Shown here in pieces: positions 41,305-64,000 of a stretch of 64,000 nt of DNA. The stretch is from a virus. Lineage: Duplodnaviria > Heunggongvirae > Uroviricota > Caudoviricetes. The notes under the pieces were generated by a model, which was not told where the DNA came from, did not search any database, and saw only the letters and a program-made list of their open reading frames with translations. The stretch spans positions 121,363 to 185,362 of the IMG/VR virus record IMGVR_UViG_3300046008_000242. One strand, given 5' to 3'. The translations under genes were made by a program, and so were the position numbers. The first letter of the stretch is position 1. Each line of letters opens with the position of its first letter.

Positions 41305-41421
41305 ATTTAAAATCCTATAACATTAAATTCGTACAACATAATCTTTTAAAAGAAAATTCTATGATTTCTTACGTAAACAAAATGGAGAACAGAATTAACT
41401 GTTCTCCATTTTTAATTTGTA

Positions 41422-53314: not shown

Positions 53315-54061
53315 CTATAACAATTTGATGATTTTGTTTAATTTCTTTTCAATCTTCTGTAGTTTAACATCCATCTCATTACGTTCCTGTTTTAATCGTT
53401 CATTTTCTTGTTTCAATTTTTGAATTTCTTTATCATGGGAACCTTCGATCTTACCTAGATAACCAGATGTTCTTGATTTGACTACATACAAATCGTTATC
53501 TACGATTGAGATAACATTGTCGAAATATGCGTTAAATAATGAACCTTGATATGGAGCATCGCGTTTATTTGTGACGACGCATAACAAATTATTTGTTCTA
53601 ACCAATTCTATCAATTCCATGCAGATTTTCTTTTTATCTTCGTATCCATCTGAAGACTTTGGAGATAGAGATTTGACGATACGTTCGATGTTATCAATCA
53701 ATAATGTTGTACATTTTAGATCGATGTTATAATCTCTAACCATTTTCTTTAACAGATAATCTATCCCATCAACTGTAATTTCACGCAAATCGATTATAAT
53801 AACTTTGTTACCATCTTTTTCCAGGATCTCCGTAATTGGTTGATAAATCGAAGAGGATATATTACGAAATCCTTTATATTGTTCGACTGGACTAGAACCA
53901 GCAAGTGTAATATGAATGATGTGTTGATTTGGTATAGATGAACCAATTTCACATAATGTTTTTGTCTTACCAGAGCCTTCAACTCCGTATAATATTGTTA
54001 ATTCTCTAGTTTCTAACATTTTATTCTTGTCATTGATTCGTTCTACAATACTTTTTGTCAT
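53315..54061 (-). CDS. Degenerate RecA/DnaB-like P-loop protein with C-terminal coiled coil
   Basis: Walker A 'GVEGSGKT', Walker B 'LLIDNI', 'VVKSR'. Confidence 0.6.
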   Translation of the reverse strand: MTKSIVERINDKNKMLETRELTILYGVEGSGKTKTLCEIGSSIPNQHIIHITLAGSSPVEQYKGFRNISSSIYQPITEILEKDGNKVIIIDLREITVDGIDYLLKKMVRDYNIDLKCTTLLIDNIERIVKSLSPKSSDGYEDKKKICMELIELVRTNNLLCVVTNKRDAPYQGSLFNAYFDNVISIVDNDLYVVKSRTSGYLGKIEGSHDKEIQKLKQENERLKQERNEMDVKLQKIEKKLNKIIKLL

Positions 54062-54242
54062 GTTTATACTCTCTATGTTGAATGGAAAACTACAGGATCT
54101 ATTATAAATGTTAAAATTGAAAAAGAAAGATAAAGTTTATACATTGAAATGATAGTCTATAAAATGTATAATAAACGCCTAAGTGTGATTGAAGTATATT
54201 AAACGTAAATAATAGACCTAACTCAAAACGTCGACATAGTCT

Positions 54243-54271
54243 AGTATAATGGAGTTTTATCGATTTCGAAA
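54243..54271 (-). promoter_or_regulatory. Promoter B1, reading into 54061 and the ligase
   Basis: TTTCGA-N17-TATACT + conserved leader. Confidence 0.65.
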
Positions 54272-54679
54272 GGAGTTTAAGACTCTGTTAATATCATACT
54301 CGATACATTATACCATCTTAAGACTATTTCGATGTGTTAAATTTACAAGAGATATCCATATTTGCTCACTACTGCTCGTTAAAAATGTATGACATAGAGT
54401 TGATTGGACCGTATATTAAAGATTCCACTAGGATGGAATAACGTCCAAATAACAGATGGTTTAATGTTTATTCTTAGTAGATAATCTGTATCCAATAAAA
54501 ATCCAGATTGAGTTTCTTGACTCTTTCTGGATCGAAGGATTTTATATGGGAATATTCGTGTAAATGATAGTCTAAGTTATGTTTAAATGTTGTATAATAA
54601 AGTCGAGGAATACACTAGAACATAATAAAGTAATATTAATGTCACCTAAAGAACATAACTCAAAGGATCGACATAGTCT

Positions 54680-54708
54680 ATCATACTACTCTTTCTACCA
54701 TTTCGAAA
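54680..54708 (-). promoter_or_regulatory. Promoter B2 (terminator at 54494-54532)
   Basis: TTTCGA-N17-TATGAT. Confidence 0.65.
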
Positions 54709-55153
54709 GGACTCCGAGACGATGTATATTACAGTTTCGACGTTTATTTGTATCCTTTCGATGATTAAGATATCGAAAGAAACGTCTTACGATGTTTCGA
54801 TATGTTGAATAAACAAGGAACATCTATATTTGGAGTTTAAACAACGATAAAAATGTATGACATAGAGTTGATTGCTCCGTATATTAAAGATTCCATTAAG
54901 ATGGATTATTGGGCAAATAACAGATGTTTGAGGAATGTTCTACATCAGAATAATGTAAATTGACTCCAATAAAAATCCCGAAGGAACTTTTGGTTCTCAA
55001 CGGGATCTAAATGGAGTCGAAAGATTTTATATGGAATATTCATGTATAATAAACGTCTTGATATGGTTTAGTTAATGAATAATAAGAGTCTAAGTTATGA
55101 TATAGTAATATTAAATGGCATTTAGAACATAACTCAAAGGATCGACATAGTCT

Positions 55154-55182
55154 ATCATAGTGGAGTTTTATCGAAAAGGCAA
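55154..55182 (-). promoter_or_regulatory. Promoter B3 (terminator at 54968-55006)
   Basis: TTGCCT-N17-TATGAT. Confidence 0.75.
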
Positions 55183-55666
55183 GAGTTTTATAGACGTTGT
55201 ATAATTCATGCTCGATGATTAAGATATTCCTTTCGATGTCTGAGATTACTCTTTCGATGATTAACGTATCGAAAGAGTACATGAAGACTGTTTCGATATG
55301 TTATATTTACAGTAGACATCTATATTTGGATTATATGCAACGTTTATTCTACATGATGTAGAGTTGATTGGATGATATACAGAACGTTCCATTAGGATGG
55401 ATTAACGCCCAAATAATGGATGTTATAACAGTTACCATTGAATGTATATTGTTAAATTATACTCAATAAAAATCCCACTCAGAAACTAATCTGGTGGGAT
55501 GCTTATGTCGAAATGAGGTTCGAAGGTTTTTATATGGGAATAATGTTGTAAATGATAATCTTAATATGATTAGTTAATGAATAATAAACGTCTAAGTTAC
55601 ACTAGAAAACAATATAGTAATATTAATGCCACCTAAAGAACATAACTCAAAGGATCGACATAGTCT

Positions 55667-55695
55667 ATCATAGTGGATATTCTACCATTTCGAAA
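55667..55695 (-). promoter_or_regulatory. Promoter B4 (terminator at 55465-55500)
   Basis: TTTCGA-N17-TATGAT. Confidence 0.65.
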
Positions 55696-55761
55696 GGAGT
55701 ATCGGATGTTGATGTTTACACATTCGATGTTATAGATTACCGATAAGACTCTTTCGATGTA

Positions 55762-56230: not shown

Positions 56231-56923
56231 TTATTTGTATTGTTCAATCATTTCCAAAAGATTAGCATAAGATTGACCACAATATGTTTGGAACATCAAT
56301 CTATGTTCAGTTTTGTAATCTTCAGATGTTAATAAAGCAACACCCATTTCAGCGACTTCCTTAGGAACAATCAACACTTCACCGTCTTCGAACACTGTTT
56401 TAATGGTTGAATCGGAATCTAATGATTTATACAACTGACATAAAATGTTATCGAATTTGATATGTAAATCTTCATCGTCTTCAATAATAGTTTCTTCTTC
56501 GATGATTTCATCTTCATCGAAAGAACCATTATTAACGTTATCTGCCAAATCTTTTAAGATTTCCAATCCTTTTTTGAAATCAGCTTCTTTATTAGATACA
56601 ACAACATTAGAAGAAACAGTTTTGAAATTAGTTGGTTTCTTAACATCAGAACGTAATCTAGAACCATTAATAATGTCAGTCAAATCAACAACAATTTCTG
56701 GTAATTTATAAGAACCAGTGTCTGCTCTGTTATCTTTGAACCATTGATTTGCGCATTTAGGTGATGACGTTCTTCCCAACAAATAATTGGTTTCCAACAC
56801 GATTGGTTTAGTGATGAATTGAGTTTCTTTATCAGAATTGTCCCAAACATAACGCAAGATTGATGTATATAATTCAACTGTGTTTTTTCTTTCTACTTTA
56901 ATTTCGTTTGACATGATAACCAC
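56231..56923 (-). CDS. Hypothetical protein
   Basis: 230 aa; TTTCGA-family promoter 56980-57007; terminator 56183-56221. Confidence 0.65.
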   Translation of the reverse strand: MVIMSNEIKVERKNTVELYTSILRYVWDNSDKETQFITKPIVLETNYLLGRTSSPKCANQWFKDNRADTGSYKLPEIVVDLTDIINGSRLRSDVKKPTNFKTVSSNVVVSNKEADFKKGLEILKDLADNVNNGSFDEDEIIEEETIIEDDEDLHIKFDNILCQLYKSLDSDSTIKTVFEDGEVLIVPKEVAEMGVALLTSEDYKTEHRLMFQTYCGQSYANLLEMIEQYK

Positions 56924-57014: not shown

Positions 57015-58028
57015 CTAAAGAAAAAATTCGTTAATTCCAAAATTATTTTTATCTTCAGGAAACATCATCTCCAATTTTGTTAAAGAACCATAGGTTATGA
57101 ATTCTTCAAATCTAGATTTATCGATGGTATCTGTTATAACATTTTTATGCAGACATTCGGTTCTGGCTTGATATAAAACATCCCAATCAATACCATGCCA
57201 TTCACATTTCCTTGTATTTTCAATATCGATAGCCTGTCTTGCTATATAATAACCGAGATATCGTCCATCCCTAACTCTAAACAACTTTTTATATGCACAA
57301 AGAAACGTTTCCATTGTAAAAAAGTTCAACTCAGATTTCAATTCAGGAAATCTTAATCTCATCTCCTGTAATATCTCCTTCGCCTTCAATTCTAATGTAA
57401 GATATTCTTCAGATGTAAATCTATCATCTAATCTATCGTCCATTCCCAATGCCAACAATAATCCCTTACGATGAGACTCTGACGGATCGTGTTCATTTAA
57501 CATTAATGATGACGGTACATTTGGAATTCCCGCAGTATGATTCAGATGTTGAAGATAGAAGTAAGCAAAGTATCTACCAAATCTATTGTAATTCTTCCTG
57601 ACAAATTCCGATAAATTATCAAATGTCTGTTCCTCATTATCGCCATAATACTTACATAATGTACCCTTCTGAGAATTTCCCATTGCCTTCTTATAGGAAT
57701 CAAACATCATTGCCAATGAACCATTATTGAATTTGGCGTCAGTCTGGTAACGTAATCGTTTCTTGTTTTCGATTGCCCATCCTGAGATCTTATCCAATGT
57801 CACCAATTCATAATCAGGAAATTCATTAAACATCACCCAAGATGTTGGCAACTGATATGTATTACCATACAACCAACACAACCATAACTTCTGTTCCTCG
57901 TTATGTTCGTATCTATCGTGTAAATAATTGGTCATCCAGACAGCAGGGTCGACGTCTCCATGTTTTAATGACCATGCATAAAACTTGATGAATCCCTCTA
58001 GTCGATTCTCCTTCAATCTATAATCCAT
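57015..58028 (-). CDS. Amino acid:DNA transferase-like protein (aGPT-PPlase2/ADDT family)
   Basis: 'MDYRLKENR.E.F...Y.WSL...D.DPAVWMTNYL.DRYEHN.EQKLWLCWLYGNTY', 'FGRYFAYFYLQHL', 'MET.LC.YKKLFR...RYLGYY'. Confidence 0.7.
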   Translation of the reverse strand: MDYRLKENRLEGFIKFYAWSLKHGDVDPAVWMTNYLHDRYEHNEEQKLWLCWLYGNTYQLPTSWVMFNEFPDYELVTLDKISGWAIENKKRLRYQTDAKFNNGSLAMMFDSYKKAMGNSQKGTLCKYYGDNEEQTFDNLSEFVRKNYNRFGRYFAYFYLQHLNHTAGIPNVPSSLMLNEHDPSESHRKGLLLALGMDDRLDDRFTSEEYLTLELKAKEILQEMRLRFPELKSELNFFTMETFLCAYKKLFRVRDGRYLGYYIARQAIDIENTRKCEWHGIDWDVLYQARTECLHKNVITDTIDKSRFEEFITYGSLTKLEMMFPEDKNNFGINEFFL

Positions 58029-58707
58029 TCTGTAGATCCTTATCAATAATATCGGTATCAACTGTGTTCAATGTAAATCCATCTATATGGTAATATACAT
58101 TATGTCTAATTGATTCAGATTTCAATCCAACTCGATTAAATATATTACCAGTGGAACCAATTATAAATCCTCTATCTACTCCCATCTCCAATAAATGCAA
58201 TGGTCGTTTACCATTACGATAGAATACCATACTCTTATCTTTATGTAATTCGATAACAGCCATTGAACTATCTCGCCATTCATGTAATGGTGATAGATTA
58301 CTTTGTATGGTCTTTAAAATCAATTCTGAATCATTTTCTGTTGAACATTTATATCCATATAATGATTCCCAATTCTCGTACAATTCCTGCGTAACAACTC
58401 CATTATGTACAATACAGATATCATCTGACACAATAGGTTGGTTAAACGTTAAACATGACGTGGAGTATCTACAATGGACAATCATAGTCAACGTATTATC
58501 TGTATCAACAAAATCTGACACTTTATACATCTCAAGGAACTTTGTTGCGTTTAATGATTCTTTACTTGTATAAATGGTTCCATCTCTAACATAGGATACT
58601 CCTGTTGCATGCATTCCTCTTATCTGAGTTTGTAATATCAATTCCTTGATTATAACTAAATCTAATTTGGTTACGTCTTTAATCTTAACACCCAATACAC
58701 CACACAT
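58018..58707 (-). CDS. Class II (Ntn) glutamine amidotransferase domain protein
   Basis: N-terminal 'MCGVLG', 'RG.HATG', 'HCRYST', 'NQP', 'HNG.V', 'TENDSE'. Confidence 0.85.
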   Translation of the reverse strand: MCGVLGVKIKDVTKLDLVIIKELILQTQIRGMHATGVSYVRDGTIYTSKESLNATKFLEMYKVSDFVDTDNTLTMIVHCRYSTSCLTFNQPIVSDDICIVHNGVVTQELYENWESLYGYKCSTENDSELILKTIQSNLSPLHEWRDSSMAVIELHKDKSMVFYRNGKRPLHLLEMGVDRGFIIGSTGNIFNRVGLKSESIRHNVYYHIDGFTLNTVDTDIIDKDLQNGL

Positions 58708-58763
58708 ATTCTATCTCCAGTAAAACGAAAAATGGAGAAGCGATGAGGCTTCTCCAATCTTAT

Positions 58764-60173
58764 TTAAAAGAATTCTTCCAAACCTGTCGACTCAAAATAC
58801 TCAATCAACCATGGGTGATGTTTATCCAACCATTCTCTACCCTTATCGTGTTTCAATAAGAATTCGTACCATTCTCTGGCGTTCTCATAATTACCATCTT
58901 TTGTTTTAGAATCACCCCACATACTCGGGGTTGTTCCGTTCCAAAGTGGTCGCCACAATGGATGAGATTCATCTTTACGTCTAACATCTAGGAATAATTT
59001 TCTGTAATCTTCGTATTCCTTTGAACCGCCATTAAACATGTCATCTCTAAAATAGAAGATTACACTAATACGTTCTGCGTCTGGTGAATGTTTAATGAAA
59101 TCAGTGTTTCCATGGATGATTTCATGATTATTAGCAAAAATGGTATCGCCTGGTCTAAGATTAACAGCTACTCTATATTCAGGAAATACTAGATATGCTC
59201 CATCATAATTGTGATTCTTAGAAATCACTGAGATATTACTTAATCCATCAGACAAGTCGCCAAAATCTCGATGTCCATAGGTTTTCCATGTGTTATTTAC
59301 AGTGATTGTGGTGAATACGGTATCAGGAATAACGTATGCTGGATCTATCTTATCACAAGCAGCTTTCTGATTACTCCATCTCCAAGGCATATTCTCTTTG
59401 AAACCTCGATTCAATGCCTGAGCAAATGGATAACACAATTTGTATTTTTCAAAATTATGTTCAGTGTATGCTGTATGACGTAAGAATGGAATTCTAGGAT
59501 ATCTACCATAACCTGGTCCAGCAATACCACTATAAGCTGGAACTGCATACACTGTACCAGAAATCCAATTCTTCATAACATCCAATGCCTTGGTTTGAGC
59601 TTCTTCTTTTGGTAAAGATTCCAATTCTTCAACTAATTTATCGAAGGAGAAATCTTCTGGAATTTTATTGGTCAACCAGACGCTTGCCCTCATTTCTGGT
59701 GGATACTCTTTTGTTTTCAATTCTTGTAATGTATCAAATCCATCTAATGTTGTAATTGGATTGATGAAATACTCTAAAATATCATGTTGTCTTTGCGTGA
59801 ATCTTTGGCGGCGTTCTTGTAAGTCATTATCAATATTATCTTCAACAGAACCAGCAGCAGTTCCTCTATTATTTGAAATAGTGGCGGCATCTTTCAATCC
59901 AGCATATCCTGCTTCTTGTTCCTCTAATGTAAAGAAACCCTTCCGATATTTGAATGCAATTCGACGTTCATCCATACCCATATGACATTCTTCGCATTTT
60001 GATGTACAATCAGCTTGCGTCGATAAATCACAAACTGGTGGAATATACACATCACAATCTTCATCAATGTCACCACCTTCTCCGATTAGAATATCATAAT
60101 GTGAACTATTGAGAGATTTACCCAATAGATGTTCACAATCGTGTTTTTCTTTTGCTACAATAATTCTTGCCAT
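58764..60173 (-). CDS. TET/JBP-family 2OG-Fe(II) dioxygenase, copy 1
   Basis: 'VFTTITVN..W.T..HRD.GD', 'G.YL.FPEYRVAVNLRPGD', 'HEIIHGNT', 'RISVIFYFR'. Confidence 0.75.
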   Translation of the reverse strand: MARIIVAKEKHDCEHLLGKSLNSSHYDILIGEGGDIDEDCDVYIPPVCDLSTQADCTSKCEECHMGMDERRIAFKYRKGFFTLEEQEAGYAGLKDAATISNNRGTAAGSVEDNIDNDLQERRQRFTQRQHDILEYFINPITTLDGFDTLQELKTKEYPPEMRASVWLTNKIPEDFSFDKLVEELESLPKEEAQTKALDVMKNWISGTVYAVPAYSGIAGPGYGRYPRIPFLRHTAYTEHNFEKYKLCYPFAQALNRGFKENMPWRWSNQKAACDKIDPAYVIPDTVFTTITVNNTWKTYGHRDFGDLSDGLSNISVISKNHNYDGAYLVFPEYRVAVNLRPGDTIFANNHEIIHGNTDFIKHSPDAERISVIFYFRDDMFNGGSKEYEDYRKLFLDVRRKDESHPLWRPLWNGTTPSMWGDSKTKDGNYENAREWYEFLLKHDKGREWLDKHHPWLIEYFESTGLEEFF

Positions 60174-60301
60174 ATTCTATTTTCCTAATTTTAAAAATAC
60201 ATTATACTCTTTAATGAATTAAAAAGAAATCTTCTTTCGTACATTATATATAATACGAAAATCTAATGGAGAACAGAATTAACTGTTCTCCATTTCTTAT
60301 A

Positions 60302-60874
60302 TTACCAGCTAATTGTCCATGTAAATTTGTTCATTATAGGTTTCTGTCTACGAACATCAATAAAGAAACCATTCTGAGTAAATTCCATTTTAAGTTTTTC
60401 CGTCCGTCTTACAAATTCTGTATCATGGACATCATACATCAAAAATGTATATTGAGCAACATTTACCTTATCAGATTTACTTGATTCAATCTTTTCGATA
60501 ATTTCAGCTCTGATTACATCAATCATTTCCTTGACAATAACACTTGCCGATGGTATATCATTATTTGAAACTCGTTTGGTGTATTCGCTTCTATCTAACA
60601 TAAGAAGAATTGTAGAATGTAATAATCCTTCAGAACCATCAAAATCAAAGAAGAAATGTGTATTTGGGATACATTTATATCCACCTAGTTTTAAAAACTC
60701 ATTCAAATTAAAAACCACAAGATTTGCACCAAATTGTGTTAAATTTCTAAAATGATTATAGATGTGGTCTCTATCGTAAGCATTCATTTTATCAACAACA
60801 AGACAAACTGGTATTCCATGTATCAATTTATCAACAATCTGGTTGTATAACTTCAATTCATTAATTGGATTCAT
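60302..60874 (-). CDS. Hypothetical protein
   Basis: 190 aa, followed by a hairpin identical to the gp32 terminator. Confidence 0.6.
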   Translation of the reverse strand: MNPINELKLYNQIVDKLIHGIPVCLVVDKMNAYDRDHIYNHFRNLTQFGANLVVFNLNEFLKLGGYKCIPNTHFFFDFDGSEGLLHSTILLMLDRSEYTKRVSNNDIPSASVIVKEMIDVIRAEIIEKIESSKSDKVNVAQYTFLMYDVHDTEFVRRTEKLKMEFTQNGFFIDVRRQKPIMNKFTWTISW

Positions 60875-60882
60875 ATATCAAC

Positions 60883-61859
60883 CTATACGTATAATTTATT
60901 TTCGAGTAATGTTTCTTTCCAATCAATAACTCCAGAAAGAATATCTTGTTGTAATTTTTGGTCTAATTTAATCGACTGAGTTTTAAATTGTCCAGTTGAT
61001 TTTTCATCCCACATTTCGTCATGGGTCGATTCAATTCTAGGTTTTCCCACATAGAACATACCCTCTGGGATACAATTAATTCCATCTAGATCGATAGCAA
61101 AATAATTAAATTCACTTCCAACATATTTCCATACGTCTCCTGCTACAAAGTCTTTATATGTTAAAATTAAACTATCATCTCTTTCTTTAATTGCTGTTGA
61201 TGCATCAAATCCTTCTGGTAATTCAACGTCATGAATGTAACAATACTCTCCATCCTCTTCTCCAGAAATCCAAACCCCATTTCCGATATGTTGGTTTAAT
61301 ATCCCATTCTGCTACACTTCCGTCTGAATCAATAGTGACATACACACTATCAATGTTTTTAAATTCATATTCTTTCAACATATCACATTTTTTGTATTCC
61401 TGTCTATATAGAATCATATTAGAACAATCTGATAATGTTACGTCAAAATCAATTAGTGTTTCAATATATCTAAATCTTTCATCACTAGACCATACTCCAT
61501 TATCATATTTTGGTTCTTCTTCAAATTCATAAATCTCGCCATCTATATCGATAGCAACACAAGTGGCCCAATCCAGTTTAAATTCGTAACCTTTCAATGG
61601 GTTACGACAAACTGATGGTTCTTTTACTTCCGATTCATTATAATTTTTAATGAAATCAACAATCTGATTATCCCAGTAACCCGTTATCATTAAGACAATT
61701 CCACATATCCTCGAATATTGAATTATCTTCAATACGTTTCAATTCTTCCTTAATCAGACTGATAGGAACTTCCACTTGTTGACTTGATTCATCGTCTGAG
61801 ATATTAACAGAATCTTTATATTTCAATTTGGTAATTTTAATCATTTTGGTTTGCTCCAA
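60883..61859 (-). CDS. Probable single hypothetical protein with repeated 'AID.DG...EEEP...W' domains, broken by frameshifts near 61672 and 61278
   Basis: Removing single homopolymer bases joins 61668-61859, 61229-61732 and an uncalled downstream frame. Confidence 0.45.
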
Positions 61860-61933
61860 TTAAATTGTAAGAATGTATATTATACTCTAAATAGAAAATG
61901 GAGATAGAACTTAATCTATCTACATTTCATATG

Positions 61934-63298
61934 TTATCCCATTAGATCTTCTAATGTTGATGCTTCAAATAAATCTTTCAAGTCTTGGTGATAATCATCC
62001 ATCCATTGGCGACCTTTCTCGTGTTCCAACAGAAAATCATACCATTCTTTAGATTCCCACATACCAGCAACAACCCCATTGAAGTATTCATGCCATTTTG
62101 GATGATTTTTGTTTAATCTATTCCTCTCAACAAACGAACGTCTATAATCTTCATATTCCTTTGTTCCTAAATCTAACATACCATCTCTAAAATACGACAC
62201 AACGCTAATTCTATGTGCATCTGGATCATTTTTGGTGATTTTAGTGTTACCATGAATGATTTTAGCATTTTCTACAATCAACAAATCTCCAGGCCTAACA
62301 TTGACCGCAATTCTGTATTCAGGAAATGTTAAGTATCCACCAGAGTAATTATCATTATCTGATAATACCAATAGATTGGAAATAGAATCTCGAAGGTTGG
62401 AAAAGTCGCGATGACATGCAGTAGTCCATGTATTATTCACAGTTAAGGTGGTGAACACTGTCTCAGGAATCAAAAATTCTGGATCTATCTTATCAGCCGC
62501 ATCTTTTTGTAATTGCCATCTTCTTGGCATTAATTCTTTAAAACCGCGATTAAGCGATTGGATAAATGGATAACATTTCTTAAATTTCTCGTAATTATGT
62601 TCAGTGTATGCGGTTGCTCTACCATAAGGTTGTCTTGGATATCTAGTCCAACCATTCCCAGCGATCCCACTCATAGCAGGAACTGCCATGGATGTTCCAG
62701 ATACATGTTTCTTATGAATTCGGATAGCTTCAGCCTGAGCTTCTTCTCTGGTCATCTTAGATAACGCATCAACCCATCCTTCAAAATCAAACATTTCCTC
62801 GCCATATAGAACCCATACAACACCTTTTGTTACAGTTAAATCATCTTTACGTTTGCGTAATTCAGATAATGTATCGTCATCGTATAATGAATCTAATGGG
62901 TTCATGAAATGGTCAAAGATAGCTCGTTGGTAATCTGATACATAATTACGTTTGGCATCTTTGTTGTTAGATTTATCACGTTCCAAGTAATTACCAGCAG
63001 CGATTCCTCTATTGTTTGAGATTGATGCAGCATCCTTCAATCCTTCTAATGCCATATCTTGTTCTTCTTTGGTGAAGAAGTTCTTACGGAACTTGAATGC
63101 CACCTTGAATTCATCTAATCCCTTATCGCATGCGTTACATTCAGATACACAATCAATTTTGGTCTGTAGATCACAAACTGGAACCGTATATACGTCCGTA
63201 TCTGATTCAATCAAAACATCGTAGAATGAATCGTCTACGAATGTTCCAAGTAGATGTTCGCAATCTAGTTTTTCTTTGGCTACAATAATTTGAACCAT
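61934..63298 (-). CDS. TET/JBP-family 2OG-Fe(II) dioxygenase, copy 2
   Basis: 'VFTTLTVN..W.T.CHRD', 'GGYLTFPEYRIAVNVRPGD', 'IIHGNT', 'RISVVSYFR'; colinear with copy 1. Confidence 0.75.
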   Translation of the reverse strand: MVQIIVAKEKLDCEHLLGTFVDDSFYDVLIESDTDVYTVPVCDLQTKIDCVSECNACDKGLDEFKVAFKFRKNFFTKEEQDMALEGLKDAASISNNRGIAAGNYLERDKSNNKDAKRNYVSDYQRAIFDHFMNPLDSLYDDDTLSELRKRKDDLTVTKGVVWVLYGEEMFDFEGWVDALSKMTREEAQAEAIRIHKKHVSGTSMAVPAMSGIAGNGWTRYPRQPYGRATAYTEHNYEKFKKCYPFIQSLNRGFKELMPRRWQLQKDAADKIDPEFLIPETVFTTLTVNNTWTTACHRDFSNLRDSISNLLVLSDNDNYSGGYLTFPEYRIAVNVRPGDLLIVENAKIIHGNTKITKNDPDAHRISVVSYFRDGMLDLGTKEYEDYRRSFVERNRLNKNHPKWHEYFNGVVAGMWESKEWYDFLLEHEKGRQWMDDYHQDLKDLFEASTLEDLMG

Positions 63299-63301
63299 AT
63301 T

Positions 63302-63829
63302 TTATCCTTGTCTGTATGAAGATGATTTAAAGAATTCCCGATTAGTCATTTGTCGATTATAAGGAATTACATCAACTGTTGAATTTCTATCCGTAACAGG
63401 AACATTTGTCATTGGAATAATTTTAGATAGATCTGGATGGAATACCGATCTATCCATTTTAACTTTCTCAGACCATATTGTGTTGTTTGGTTGAATCGTA
63501 TTTTCATTGTCAGGAACATCATTAAAATCGATAATCTTTAACTTACCATCAAATGTTCCTCTATCATTAGATATTTCAGTTTCCTGTTTATATCGTTCCC
63601 ATAATTGAGTTGTAATGGTTTCATTTAACGTAGCAGAAATACATGAACCTGATACATGACATCTATATTTCATGTTTGGATCTGTTATATCCAAATTAAA
63701 GTAACCACAATTCTTACAGGATTCTTTGATATTCAACAATTCAAGATGTTTGGAAATAGATTTATTATATTTGTCTTGGATTGTAATTAATTGTTCTTTA
63801 AATGGTATCATAAGATTCCTAGAATACAA
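63302..63829 (-). CDS. Hypothetical protein with a Cys cluster (CxxC...C...C)
   Basis: 175 aa between gp41 and the dioxygenase. Confidence 0.55.
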   Translation of the reverse strand: MYSRNLMIPFKEQLITIQDKYNKSISKHLELLNIKESCKNCGYFNLDITDPNMKYRCHVSGSCISATLNETITTQLWERYKQETEISNDRGTFDGKLKIIDFNDVPDNENTIQPNNTIWSEKVKMDRSVFHPDLSKIIPMTNVPVTDRNSTVDVIPYNRQMTNREFFKSSSYRQG

Positions 63830-64000
63830 AATCAGAAGTGGTAACTTGTTTGGTTTTATTTAGAGTTGACATCGGATTATCTTTGAATGGGGTGTAATCA
63901 ACTGAACCCTTACCAGAAATGTTTGTCTGAGCTGAATCCTCTAAATCAAATAATCTCATCTTAGAACGATCGATGCCAACGGTGAATCTTTTATAGTAAT
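63819..64000 (-). CDS. gp41: 3' end of replicative helicase gp41 (partial)
   Basis: Manual translation 'YYKRFTVGIDRSKMRLFDLEDSAQ' matches the T4-like gp41 C-terminus. Confidence 0.75.
   Translation of the reverse strand, partial: YYKRFTVGIDRSKMRLFDLEDSAQTNISGKGSVDYTPFKDNPMSTLNKTKQVTTSDFVF

Follow-up and report, generated by a model that had tools for sequence, protein, structure and literature searches.

The window analysed here is the whole 64,000-nucleotide stretch C1:121363-185362 of the virus record IMGVR_UViG_3300046008_000242, the genome of an uncultured T4-like phage of 249,362 bp (98% complete, IMG/VR); positions without the prefix C1 refer to the window. At 57015-63298 the original prediction, made from the letters of the window, had placed a DNA hypermodification cluster of two TET/JBP oxygenases, an N-terminal nucleophile (Ntn) amidotransferase and an aGPT-Pplase2-like transferase, just downstream of gp41. 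The four genes were found where it had put them, on the minus strand, their families were confirmed by Pfam profiles above cut-offs, and a DnaB_C helicase gene stands directly upstream. The post-replicative route to an amino-modified pyrimidine proposed with them is supported, and clusters of the same types have been published; the locus is read below as a candidate half of a thymine hypermodification pathway, in which a glutamine amidotransferase (GATase) and an ADDT-type transferase may work as a pair. Minus-strand transcription order: gp41, a 175-aa open reading frame (ORF), 5mYOX-1, four small ORFs, 5mYOX-2, GATase, ADDT-1 and a 230-aa ORF. The genes on which the argument turns are the following.

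63819..64000, minus strand: gp41-type replicative helicase, 3' end of the gene (DnaB_C E 1.9e-18, AAA_25).
61934..63298, minus strand: 5mYOX-1, long-form TET/JBP-type dioxygenase, 454 aa (Tet_JBP, phrog_24024).
58764..60173, minus strand: 5mYOX-2, paralogous long-form dioxygenase, 469 aa (Tet_JBP).
58018..58707, minus strand: GATase, stand-alone class-II (Ntn) amidotransferase domain, 229 aa (GATase_6, GATase_7).
57015..58028, minus strand: ADDT-1 (aGPT-Pplase2), 337 aa from the ATG at 58028 (ADDT profile; the ORF extends 57015-58061).

The whole gp41 gene (C1:185181-186581, 466 aa) lies directly upstream of this module, and a 5mYOX module directly after gp41 was seen in other T4-like phages too. 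Megablast of the locus against cultured phages gave no match.

5mYOX-1 and 5mYOX-2: both proteins were matched by Tet_JBP (PF12851; cut-off 34.9 bits) with E 1.2e-21, 77 bits (5mYOX-1) and E 8.7e-18, 64.5 bits (5mYOX-2), and 5mYOX-1 by phrog_24024 with E 4e-126; they are 52% identical over the full length. The predicted HxD...H...R set is intact in each (H296, D298, H349 and R363 in 5mYOX-1; H301, D303, H354 and R368 in 5mYOX-2), H296/D298/H349 being invariant and R363 nearly so in 41 long-form members. The AF2 model of 5mYOX-1 (pLDDT 88.2) was compared with the PDB by Foldseek; the best matches were CcTet, NgTET1, TET2 and CMD1, E from 2e-10, and FTO came only after these; the model thus has the double-stranded beta-helix of the solved TET enzymes. 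The original prediction had named membership of a non-nucleic-acid family as the result that would tell against it; profile searches of both oxygenases, and the fold search with 5mYOX-1, place them in TET/JBP. The sequences point to TET/JBP-type 5-methylpyrimidine dioxygenases, the substrate of which is probably thymine. Phage 5mYOXs of ca. 300 aa share 37-44% identity with the catalytic domain, and the long-form oxidases reach ca. 450 aa with a conserved N-terminal extension of ca. 220 aa. This extension was considered as a fused ParB and set aside on weak evidence, the Foldseek matches listed being TET-family proteins, then FTO; a six-frame search of the entire genome with ParB_N gave nothing at E<=1. 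The long-form, ParB-less family (1,608 proteins at E<=1e-3 in a word-indexed search; 1,568 representatives at 50% clustering) comes mostly from big T4-like phages, and no member was met among the enzymes described in the phage 5mYOX literature, as far as searched.

A tree of 81 long-form sequences was rooted on four short forms. Each oxidase copy pairs with its orthologue in a sister phage (234,735 bp with terminal repeats; support 100 and 99), and both pairs are joined (93) inside a clade with the oxidase of the related locus L021 (99); the duplication therefore predates both phages and goes back to their common ancestor. The suggestion that the two oxidases carry out successive steps found no support: they are a lineage-specific duplication common to the sister phage. 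With regard to the pairing of oxidases with ADDTs via single-copy relatives, the L102 oxidase is 45% identical to 5mYOX-2 and 42% to 5mYOX-1.

GATase: GATase_6 (E 1.7e-8, 35 bits) and GATase_7 (E 7e-6, 26.4 bits) were both above cut-off. The protein starts M-C-G and keeps HCRYST, HNG and NDSE; residue 2 is aligned to position 1 of PurF, GlmS and AsnB, and every catalytic residue of these enzymes is retained across 36 homologues, in which C2, R80, N102, G103 and D126 are invariant, so that the N-terminal Cys of the original prediction is borne out. The 229 aa comprise the glutaminase domain only, no synthase or acceptor domain being fused to it; from these sequence features an ammonia donor is proposed, the acceptor of which would be the separate ADDT-1.

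ADDT-1: the ADDT profile (PF18724, cut-off 26.2 bits) was matched with E 3.3e-16 and 60.2 bits. The start was chosen by the N-termini of homologues, and the gene so defined (start at 58028) overlaps the GATase gene by 11 nt. E251-T-F-L-C255 is kept; E251 and C255 match the essential Glu and Cys of M6 gp51, ViI gp247 and PaMx11 gp46, and the Glu and Cys of the ETxxC motif are invariant in 18 homologues. The motif RYEHN (residues 50-54) is specific to GATase-linked ADDTs. This pairing was counted in 32 non-redundant loci, each with 7.5 kb or more of downstream sequence; the ADDT-1 subtype, the motif R[YF][EQN]HN and the kinase described below were present in 17/17 GATase-positive loci, the subtype in 0/15 GATase-negative loci, and 6/6 phylogenetically independent pairs were concordant (p=0.031).

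GATase:ADDT-1 complex: prediction gave a score of 0.88 vs 0.00 for the best control, a mark reached by 58/80 solved complexes and 2/110 mismatched pairs, which expresses the model's own confidence and is not a binding measurement; contact agreement between runs was at least 97%, and partner pLDDT at least 91. A sequence search of solved structures returned no complex related to this pair, and the high score is therefore unlikely to stem from the predictor's memory. The modelled interface is formed on the GATase side by the active-site face (residues 1, 28-33, 81-83 and 103-104) and on the ADDT-1 side takes in the subtype-specific RYEHN segment. The strict 17/17 pairing with one ADDT subtype, together with the interface motif, looks like a two-subunit amidotransferase.

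Kinase and ADDT-2: the original prediction had seen neither a kinase nor a C5-methyltransferase, which is true of the window; both are encoded elsewhere in the genome (C1:101700-102248 and C1:93959-94927, respectively). It had left the activation step unexplained, and this gap would be filled by a P-loop kinase gene at C1:101700-102248, ca. 76 kb from the oxidase locus, the orthologues of which (39-44% identity, E 1e-34 to 1e-38; ca. 180 aa) directly follow ADDT in relatives. Since this kinase is encoded elsewhere, the amidotransferase need not replace activation, as had been surmised, and more likely supplies the nitrogen nucleophile. AAA_18 (34.5 bits) and AAA_33 (29.1 bits) were above cut-off for the kinase, Ploopntkinase3 was weak, DNMK is absent from the genome, and tblastn against ViI, M6 and PaMx11 was without match; by orthology and gene order the protein is best regarded as a functional analogue of the 5-hydroxymethyluracil DNA kinase 5-HMUDK. 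A 248-aa P-loop protein (53315-54061, minus strand) had also been tried as the activating kinase and was rejected, since its only matches are weak and RecA/AAA-like, it ends in a coiled coil, and related modules hold no orthologue of it. It carries the Walker A motif GVEGSGKT, weak AAA_22/AAA_24 matches and the coiled coil at its C-terminus, and its gene lies upstream of that of a DNA ligase.

The kinase gene overlaps by 1 nt, in one operon, the gene of a second, divergent transferase, ADDT-2 (ca. 302 aa), which keeps E240/C244 in an E-T-F-L-C motif. ADDT-2 scored 24.2 bits, just under the PF18724 cut-off of 26.2; some of its homologues carry precomputed PF18724 matches, and its matches in cultured phages are all weak, the PhiW-14 gp109 putrescine transferase among them. 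In other T4-like phages members of the ADDT-2 family stand in the order gp41, 5mYOX, one unassigned gene, ADDT-2, kinase. A single region of ca. 20 kb holds both the oxidase locus and the ADDT-2/kinase pair in the sister phage, and the 76-kb separation seen here is therefore a rearrangement; by the sister comparison its breakpoint falls in or next to an ORF-poor stretch at ca. 54-55.7 kb of the window (54062-55750), between the P-loop ATPase gene and a phrog_22386-like ORF. A caspase-domain protein (L017 2016-2744, C1:98016-98744, minus strand; Peptidase_C14 E 4e-26) was also noted; its sister-phage counterpart is 60% conserved and is encoded between the oxidase locus and ADDT-2 of that phage.

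Related loci: five arrangements were seen downstream of the oxidase gene in 80 related loci, namely (i) GATase, X213, ADDT, kinase; (ii) GATase, amidoligase, GNAT, (X429), ADDT, kinase; (iii) GATase, ADDT, kinase, in the 161-kb record L031, the same minimal set as here; (iv) an ADDT of another type with kinase and without GATase; (v) no ADDT at all. Along the oxidase tree at least 35 changes of cassette type were counted. Between the sisters 5mYOX-1 is 83% and ADDT-2 82% identical, 5mYOX-2, the faster-evolving copy, only 62%, and the gene after this copy differs: GATase and ADDT-1 are found here, whereas the sister has a 401-aa ADDT of another type. From the sequences, this comparison suggests one stable and one swappable branch; a tailoring cassette exchanged while the oxidases stay put shows how phages diversify their DNA chemistry. 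Most related modules are closed, just before gp45, by a conserved gene of ca. 265-300 aa (L014 12245-13156; L015 14986-15852; L013 10198-10995) with weak Anp1 (glycosyltransferase-like) matches and no homologue in this genome.

In ca. 1/4 of the relatives the oxidase occurs without ADDT or kinase. This would suit oxidases that merely mark specific sites with 5-hydroxymethyluracil or higher oxidation states for regulation, the GATase and ADDT being unrelated or inactive; epigenetic-like roles and partial sequence-specific oxidation have been discussed (O'Toole 2026, PMC13229309). Such a role is very improbable here: the catalytic motifs of the GATase and both ADDTs and the P-loop of the kinase are intact, and the order oxidase-GATase-ADDT-kinase recurs in dozens of phages.

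Proposed pathway: the locus is taken, with slightly more confidence than doubt, for one half of a two-branch post-replicative hypermodification of thymine, its product being reached via thymine, 5-hydroxymethyluracil, 5-phosphomethyluracil and 5-aminomethyluracil; the general pathway, considered by itself, is held to be likely. In step 1, to judge by family and context, both long-form dioxygenases would turn thymine of already replicated phage DNA into 5-hydroxymethyluracil, probably at different sequence contexts. In step 2 the P-loop kinase would phosphorylate the hydroxymethyl group, as its orthology and conserved adjacency suggest. Step 3 would follow known ADDT chemistry (Cys attacks C6, phosphate leaves, a nucleophile adds to the exocyclic methylene), the mechanism being known from M6, ViI and PaMx11: Cys255 of ADDT-1 would attack C6, expel the phosphate and expose the exocyclic methylene. 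Step 4 is a new proposal: the glutaminase active site would dock onto ADDT-1, and glutamine-derived ammonia would be the nucleophile, giving 5-aminomethyl-2'-deoxyuridine directly. This ammonia step, with glutamine as nitrogen source, is suggested by the modelled interface and put forward tentatively, at a little below an even chance. In a parallel branch ADDT-2, beside the kinase, would install a second, different group. The fullest version, in which GATase and ADDT form a two-subunit glutamine-dependent DNA aminotransferase that channels ammonia onto activated thymine of duplex DNA and makes 5-aminomethyluracil in one step beside the second ADDT, with two context-specific oxidases and two bases, is rather doubtful as a whole. 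By analogy, the modification may shield phage DNA from host nucleases.

Fate of the amine: neither Amidoligase_2 nor GNAT was found in this genome, and the free amine is therefore probably the end product of the ADDT-1 branch. Relatives add GNAT and amidoligase to the same core; acylation of the free amine by these enzymes of the larger cassettes would fit, by analogy with PaMx11 gp48, which acetylates 5-aminomethyl-2'-deoxyuridine (5-NmdU) (PMC8989533, PMC11472151).

Several points weigh against this pathway, besides the nature of the complex score given above. HMUDK_hel (PF18723) has no match anywhere in the genome, the kinase aligns with PaMx11 gp49 at the P-loop alone, and the substrate assigned to it comes solely from the gene neighbourhood. 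Mapping of ADDT-1 onto the solved PaMx11 gp46 failed, a PDB profile search giving chance matches only (hhalign probability 0.3). In the 80 related loci the GATase gene always adjoins that of the oxidase, and not always that of the ADDT. Stand-alone class-II GATase folds can be amidohydrolases and not ammonia donors. Finally, a gene of the C5-methyltransferase family PF00145 is present once in this genome, ca. 85 kb from the oxidases, and once in the sister phage, ca. 50 kb from them.

The GATase-like protein might accordingly be an Ntn amidohydrolase: glutamine or a gamma-glutamyl compound would be put on the base by ADDT-1 and then trimmed or deamidated, in an EgtC-like manner, by the Cys2 hydrolase, with a glutamyl- or other amino-acid-thymine as the product. 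A GATase of 229 aa without synthase domain would suit such an enzyme, alpha-glutamylthymine is a known phage base (SP10), and an interface at the glutaminase active site would serve equally for the hand-over of a DNA-bound adduct. It is nevertheless unlikely, since the full PurF/GlmS/AsnB glutaminase residue set is invariant, the pairing is one-to-one with a single ADDT subtype and has a dedicated interface motif, and the acylating GNAT and amidoligase of the relatives need a free amine.

Thymine or 5-methylcytosine (5mC): the substrate is probably thymine and not 5mC. The original prediction had called for a scan of the remaining genome for kinase, methyltransferase and dUMP hydroxymethylase; the first two turned up, and a profile search found no member of the Thymidylat_synt family in the genome, so that there is no pre-replicative 5-hydroxymethyl-2'-deoxyuridine (5hmdU). 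PF00145 is absent from Cr30, DLP6 and C48C1, each with one long-form oxidase, and from 14 related IMG/VR records, three of them 96-100% complete; one of these PF00145-less records has the same minimal GATase-ADDT-kinase set. A homologue of the C5-methyltransferase of this genome was found within 10 kb in 0/80 related loci. Phage 5mYOX clades without an adjacent C5-methyltransferase are thymine dioxygenases, and one of them is linked to GATases, P-loop kinases and AADTs (O'Toole 2026, PMC13229309).

The methyltransferase could instead open a cytosine branch, in which it would make 5mC, one oxidase would convert this into 5-hydroxymethylcytosine (5hmC), and the kinase and one ADDT would lead to an amino-modified cytosine, both pyrimidines thus being modified. 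This phage and its sister have one PF00145 gene each and are the only relatives with two oxidases and two ADDTs; 5mC-acting phage TETs are known, phosphorylation of 5hmC has been proposed (Burke 2021), and 5mYOX97 and 5mYOX176 oxidise 5mC in vitro too. Yet the known 5mC-type phage TETs have an adjacent C5-methyltransferase, the genes here are separated by the distances given above, 17 related genomes or records and 80 related neighbourhoods yielded no C5-methyltransferase, and the correlation between methyltransferase and duplicated oxidase amounts to a single evolutionary event; the cytosine branch is judged improbable, more so than the amidohydrolase.

A separate observation concerns the surroundings of the methyltransferase gene: at C1:93143-94955 (L005 3144-4955) a MazG-like pyrophosphatase gene is directly followed by it, and PNKP and metallophosphatase genes lie just upstream of the MazG-like gene. 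In many relatives a MazG gene stands directly before the oxidase gene instead.

The remaining features of the locus are as follows.

63302..63829, minus strand: Cys-rich 175-aa ORF between gp41 and 5mYOX-1, function not assigned.
61229..61732, minus strand: 167-aa ORF, variable spacer between the oxidase genes, weak phrog_1972 match.
60302..60874, minus strand: 190-aa ORF, variable spacer, no sister-phage homologue.
60265..60294, minus strand: terminator-like hairpin upstream of 5mYOX-2, 12-bp stem, then a T-rich tail.
58733..58756, minus strand: hairpin and T-run between the 5mYOX-2 and GATase genes; a ribosome-binding site (GGAG) and the start codon ATG of the GATase gene come next.
56231..56923, minus strand: 230-aa acidic ORF after ADDT-1, with 70% identity to the gene that follows the sister phage's different ADDT.

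The 175-aa ORF had no match in Pfam, PHROG or NCBIfam; over its N-terminal 81 aa it shares 48% identity with the sister-phage gene in the corresponding position. The 167-aa ORF has a partial match (37%) to a sister-phage spacer gene. For the 190-aa ORF, family searches (Pfam, PHROG, NCBIfam) were without match and the Atlas search without usable lead, and it has neither a Walker A motif nor ParB similarity. The small ORFs P0005-P0008 were considered as ParB-like or enzymatic partners and dropped, family and Atlas searches giving no lead. The 230-aa acidic ORF, likewise without match in family and Atlas searches, is not found in the other 78 of the 80 related loci (two of the 80 being from the sister phage) and is probably not a core pathway member. 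It shows local similarity (24-48%) to two small proteins near ADDT-2 (L017 1389-1883 and 3140-3619), which hints, at the level of sequence, at a paralogous family around both loci.

Hairpins: GC-rich hairpins sharing the stem TGGAGAA...TTCTCCA bracket the 5mYOX-2 gene (58733-58756 and 60265-60294), and a third lies at 41383-41408, the copy at 60267-60292 being identical to it; 3 matches were found, where chance would give 0.03. The hairpins probably represent the standard terminator of the phage, or possibly cassette boundaries.

Two further genes of this genome were noted. A UvsX recombinase gene (L004 9942-11417, C1:194942-196417; RecA and T4_UVSX_C) is interrupted by a Hint/intein domain (Intein_splicing, Hom_end_hint), and a SIR2-family protein of 229 aa (E 2.7e-40) is encoded at L004 6750-7439 (C1:191750-192439), in the run of early genes that lies upstream of gp41.

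Comparison with known systems: PurF, GlmS and AsnB share with the GATase the N-terminal Cys and the R, N-G and D residues, and in the model the glutaminase active site likewise faces the acceptor; unlike in these enzymes, the acceptor would be a separate polypeptide of unrelated fold (ADDT) and would act on a base in duplex DNA. PaMx11 gp46-gp49 resemble the present set in the ADDT E-T-x-x-C motif, in a P-loop kinase of similar size and in an aminomethyluracil intermediate or product, which is predicted here. In PaMx11, 5hmdU is made before replication and 5-NmdU is formed in two steps, glycine transfer and then an FAD lyase (PMC8989533, PMC11472151), whereas this phage has no FAD enzyme and a single, glutaminase-driven step to the amine is proposed for it; by profile, ADDT-1 showed no similarity to gp46. 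PhiW-14 gp109, the putrescine:DNA transferase of a Delftia phage, is one of the best matches of ADDT-2 in cultured phages (21% identity over 85% of the length, E 1e-4), a very weak similarity from which the nucleophile of ADDT-2 is not readable.

Phage T-dioxygenases have been divided into clade C1, 'ParB-dependent', and clade C2, 'ParB-independent', 5mYOXs (O'Toole et al., PNAS 2026, PMC13229309). The present oxidases are like clade C1 in their linkage to GATase, P-loop kinase and AADT and in having no adjacent C5-methyltransferase; unlike the ParB-dependent subclass, this genome is without ParB_N, and the proteins of ca. 450 aa have an N-terminal extension of ca. 220 aa that characterised 5mYOXs do not have. 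From the C5-methyltransferase and TET pathway to 5hmC (Burke 2021) the locus differs in having no C5-methyltransferase beside the oxidase genes.

Metavirome clusters of TET_JBP, P-loop kinase and aGPT-Pplase2 with amidotransferase and amidoligase genes were described by Lee et al. (NAR 2021, PMC8989533, Fig. 2, sequences 22-25), where the glutamine amidotransferases were noted as of unknown function. The gene families are the same, a dioxygenase in place of dUMP hydroxymethylase, then kinase and ADDT; this phage differs in its two oxidase paralogues, two ADDTs and a kinase in a separate locus, in having no amidoligase or GNAT, and in its setting directly after gp41 of a 249-kb T4-like genome. 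Gene neighbourhoods that combine 5mYOX, kinase and ADDT with amidotransferases have thus been published before (Lee 2021; O'Toole 2026). The dual-oxidase/dual-transferase layout, the split locus, the ParB-less long form and the minimal cassette appear to be new, as do the statistics and the complex model in favour of an obligate GATase-ADDT pair. Together with contig L031 this phage presents the smallest complete version of the system (oxidase, kinase, ADDT and GATase without downstream tailoring genes), and this minimal set makes testable a concrete prediction: an obligate GATase-ADDT pair which would use glutamine nitrogen to form 5-aminomethyl-2'-deoxyuridine.

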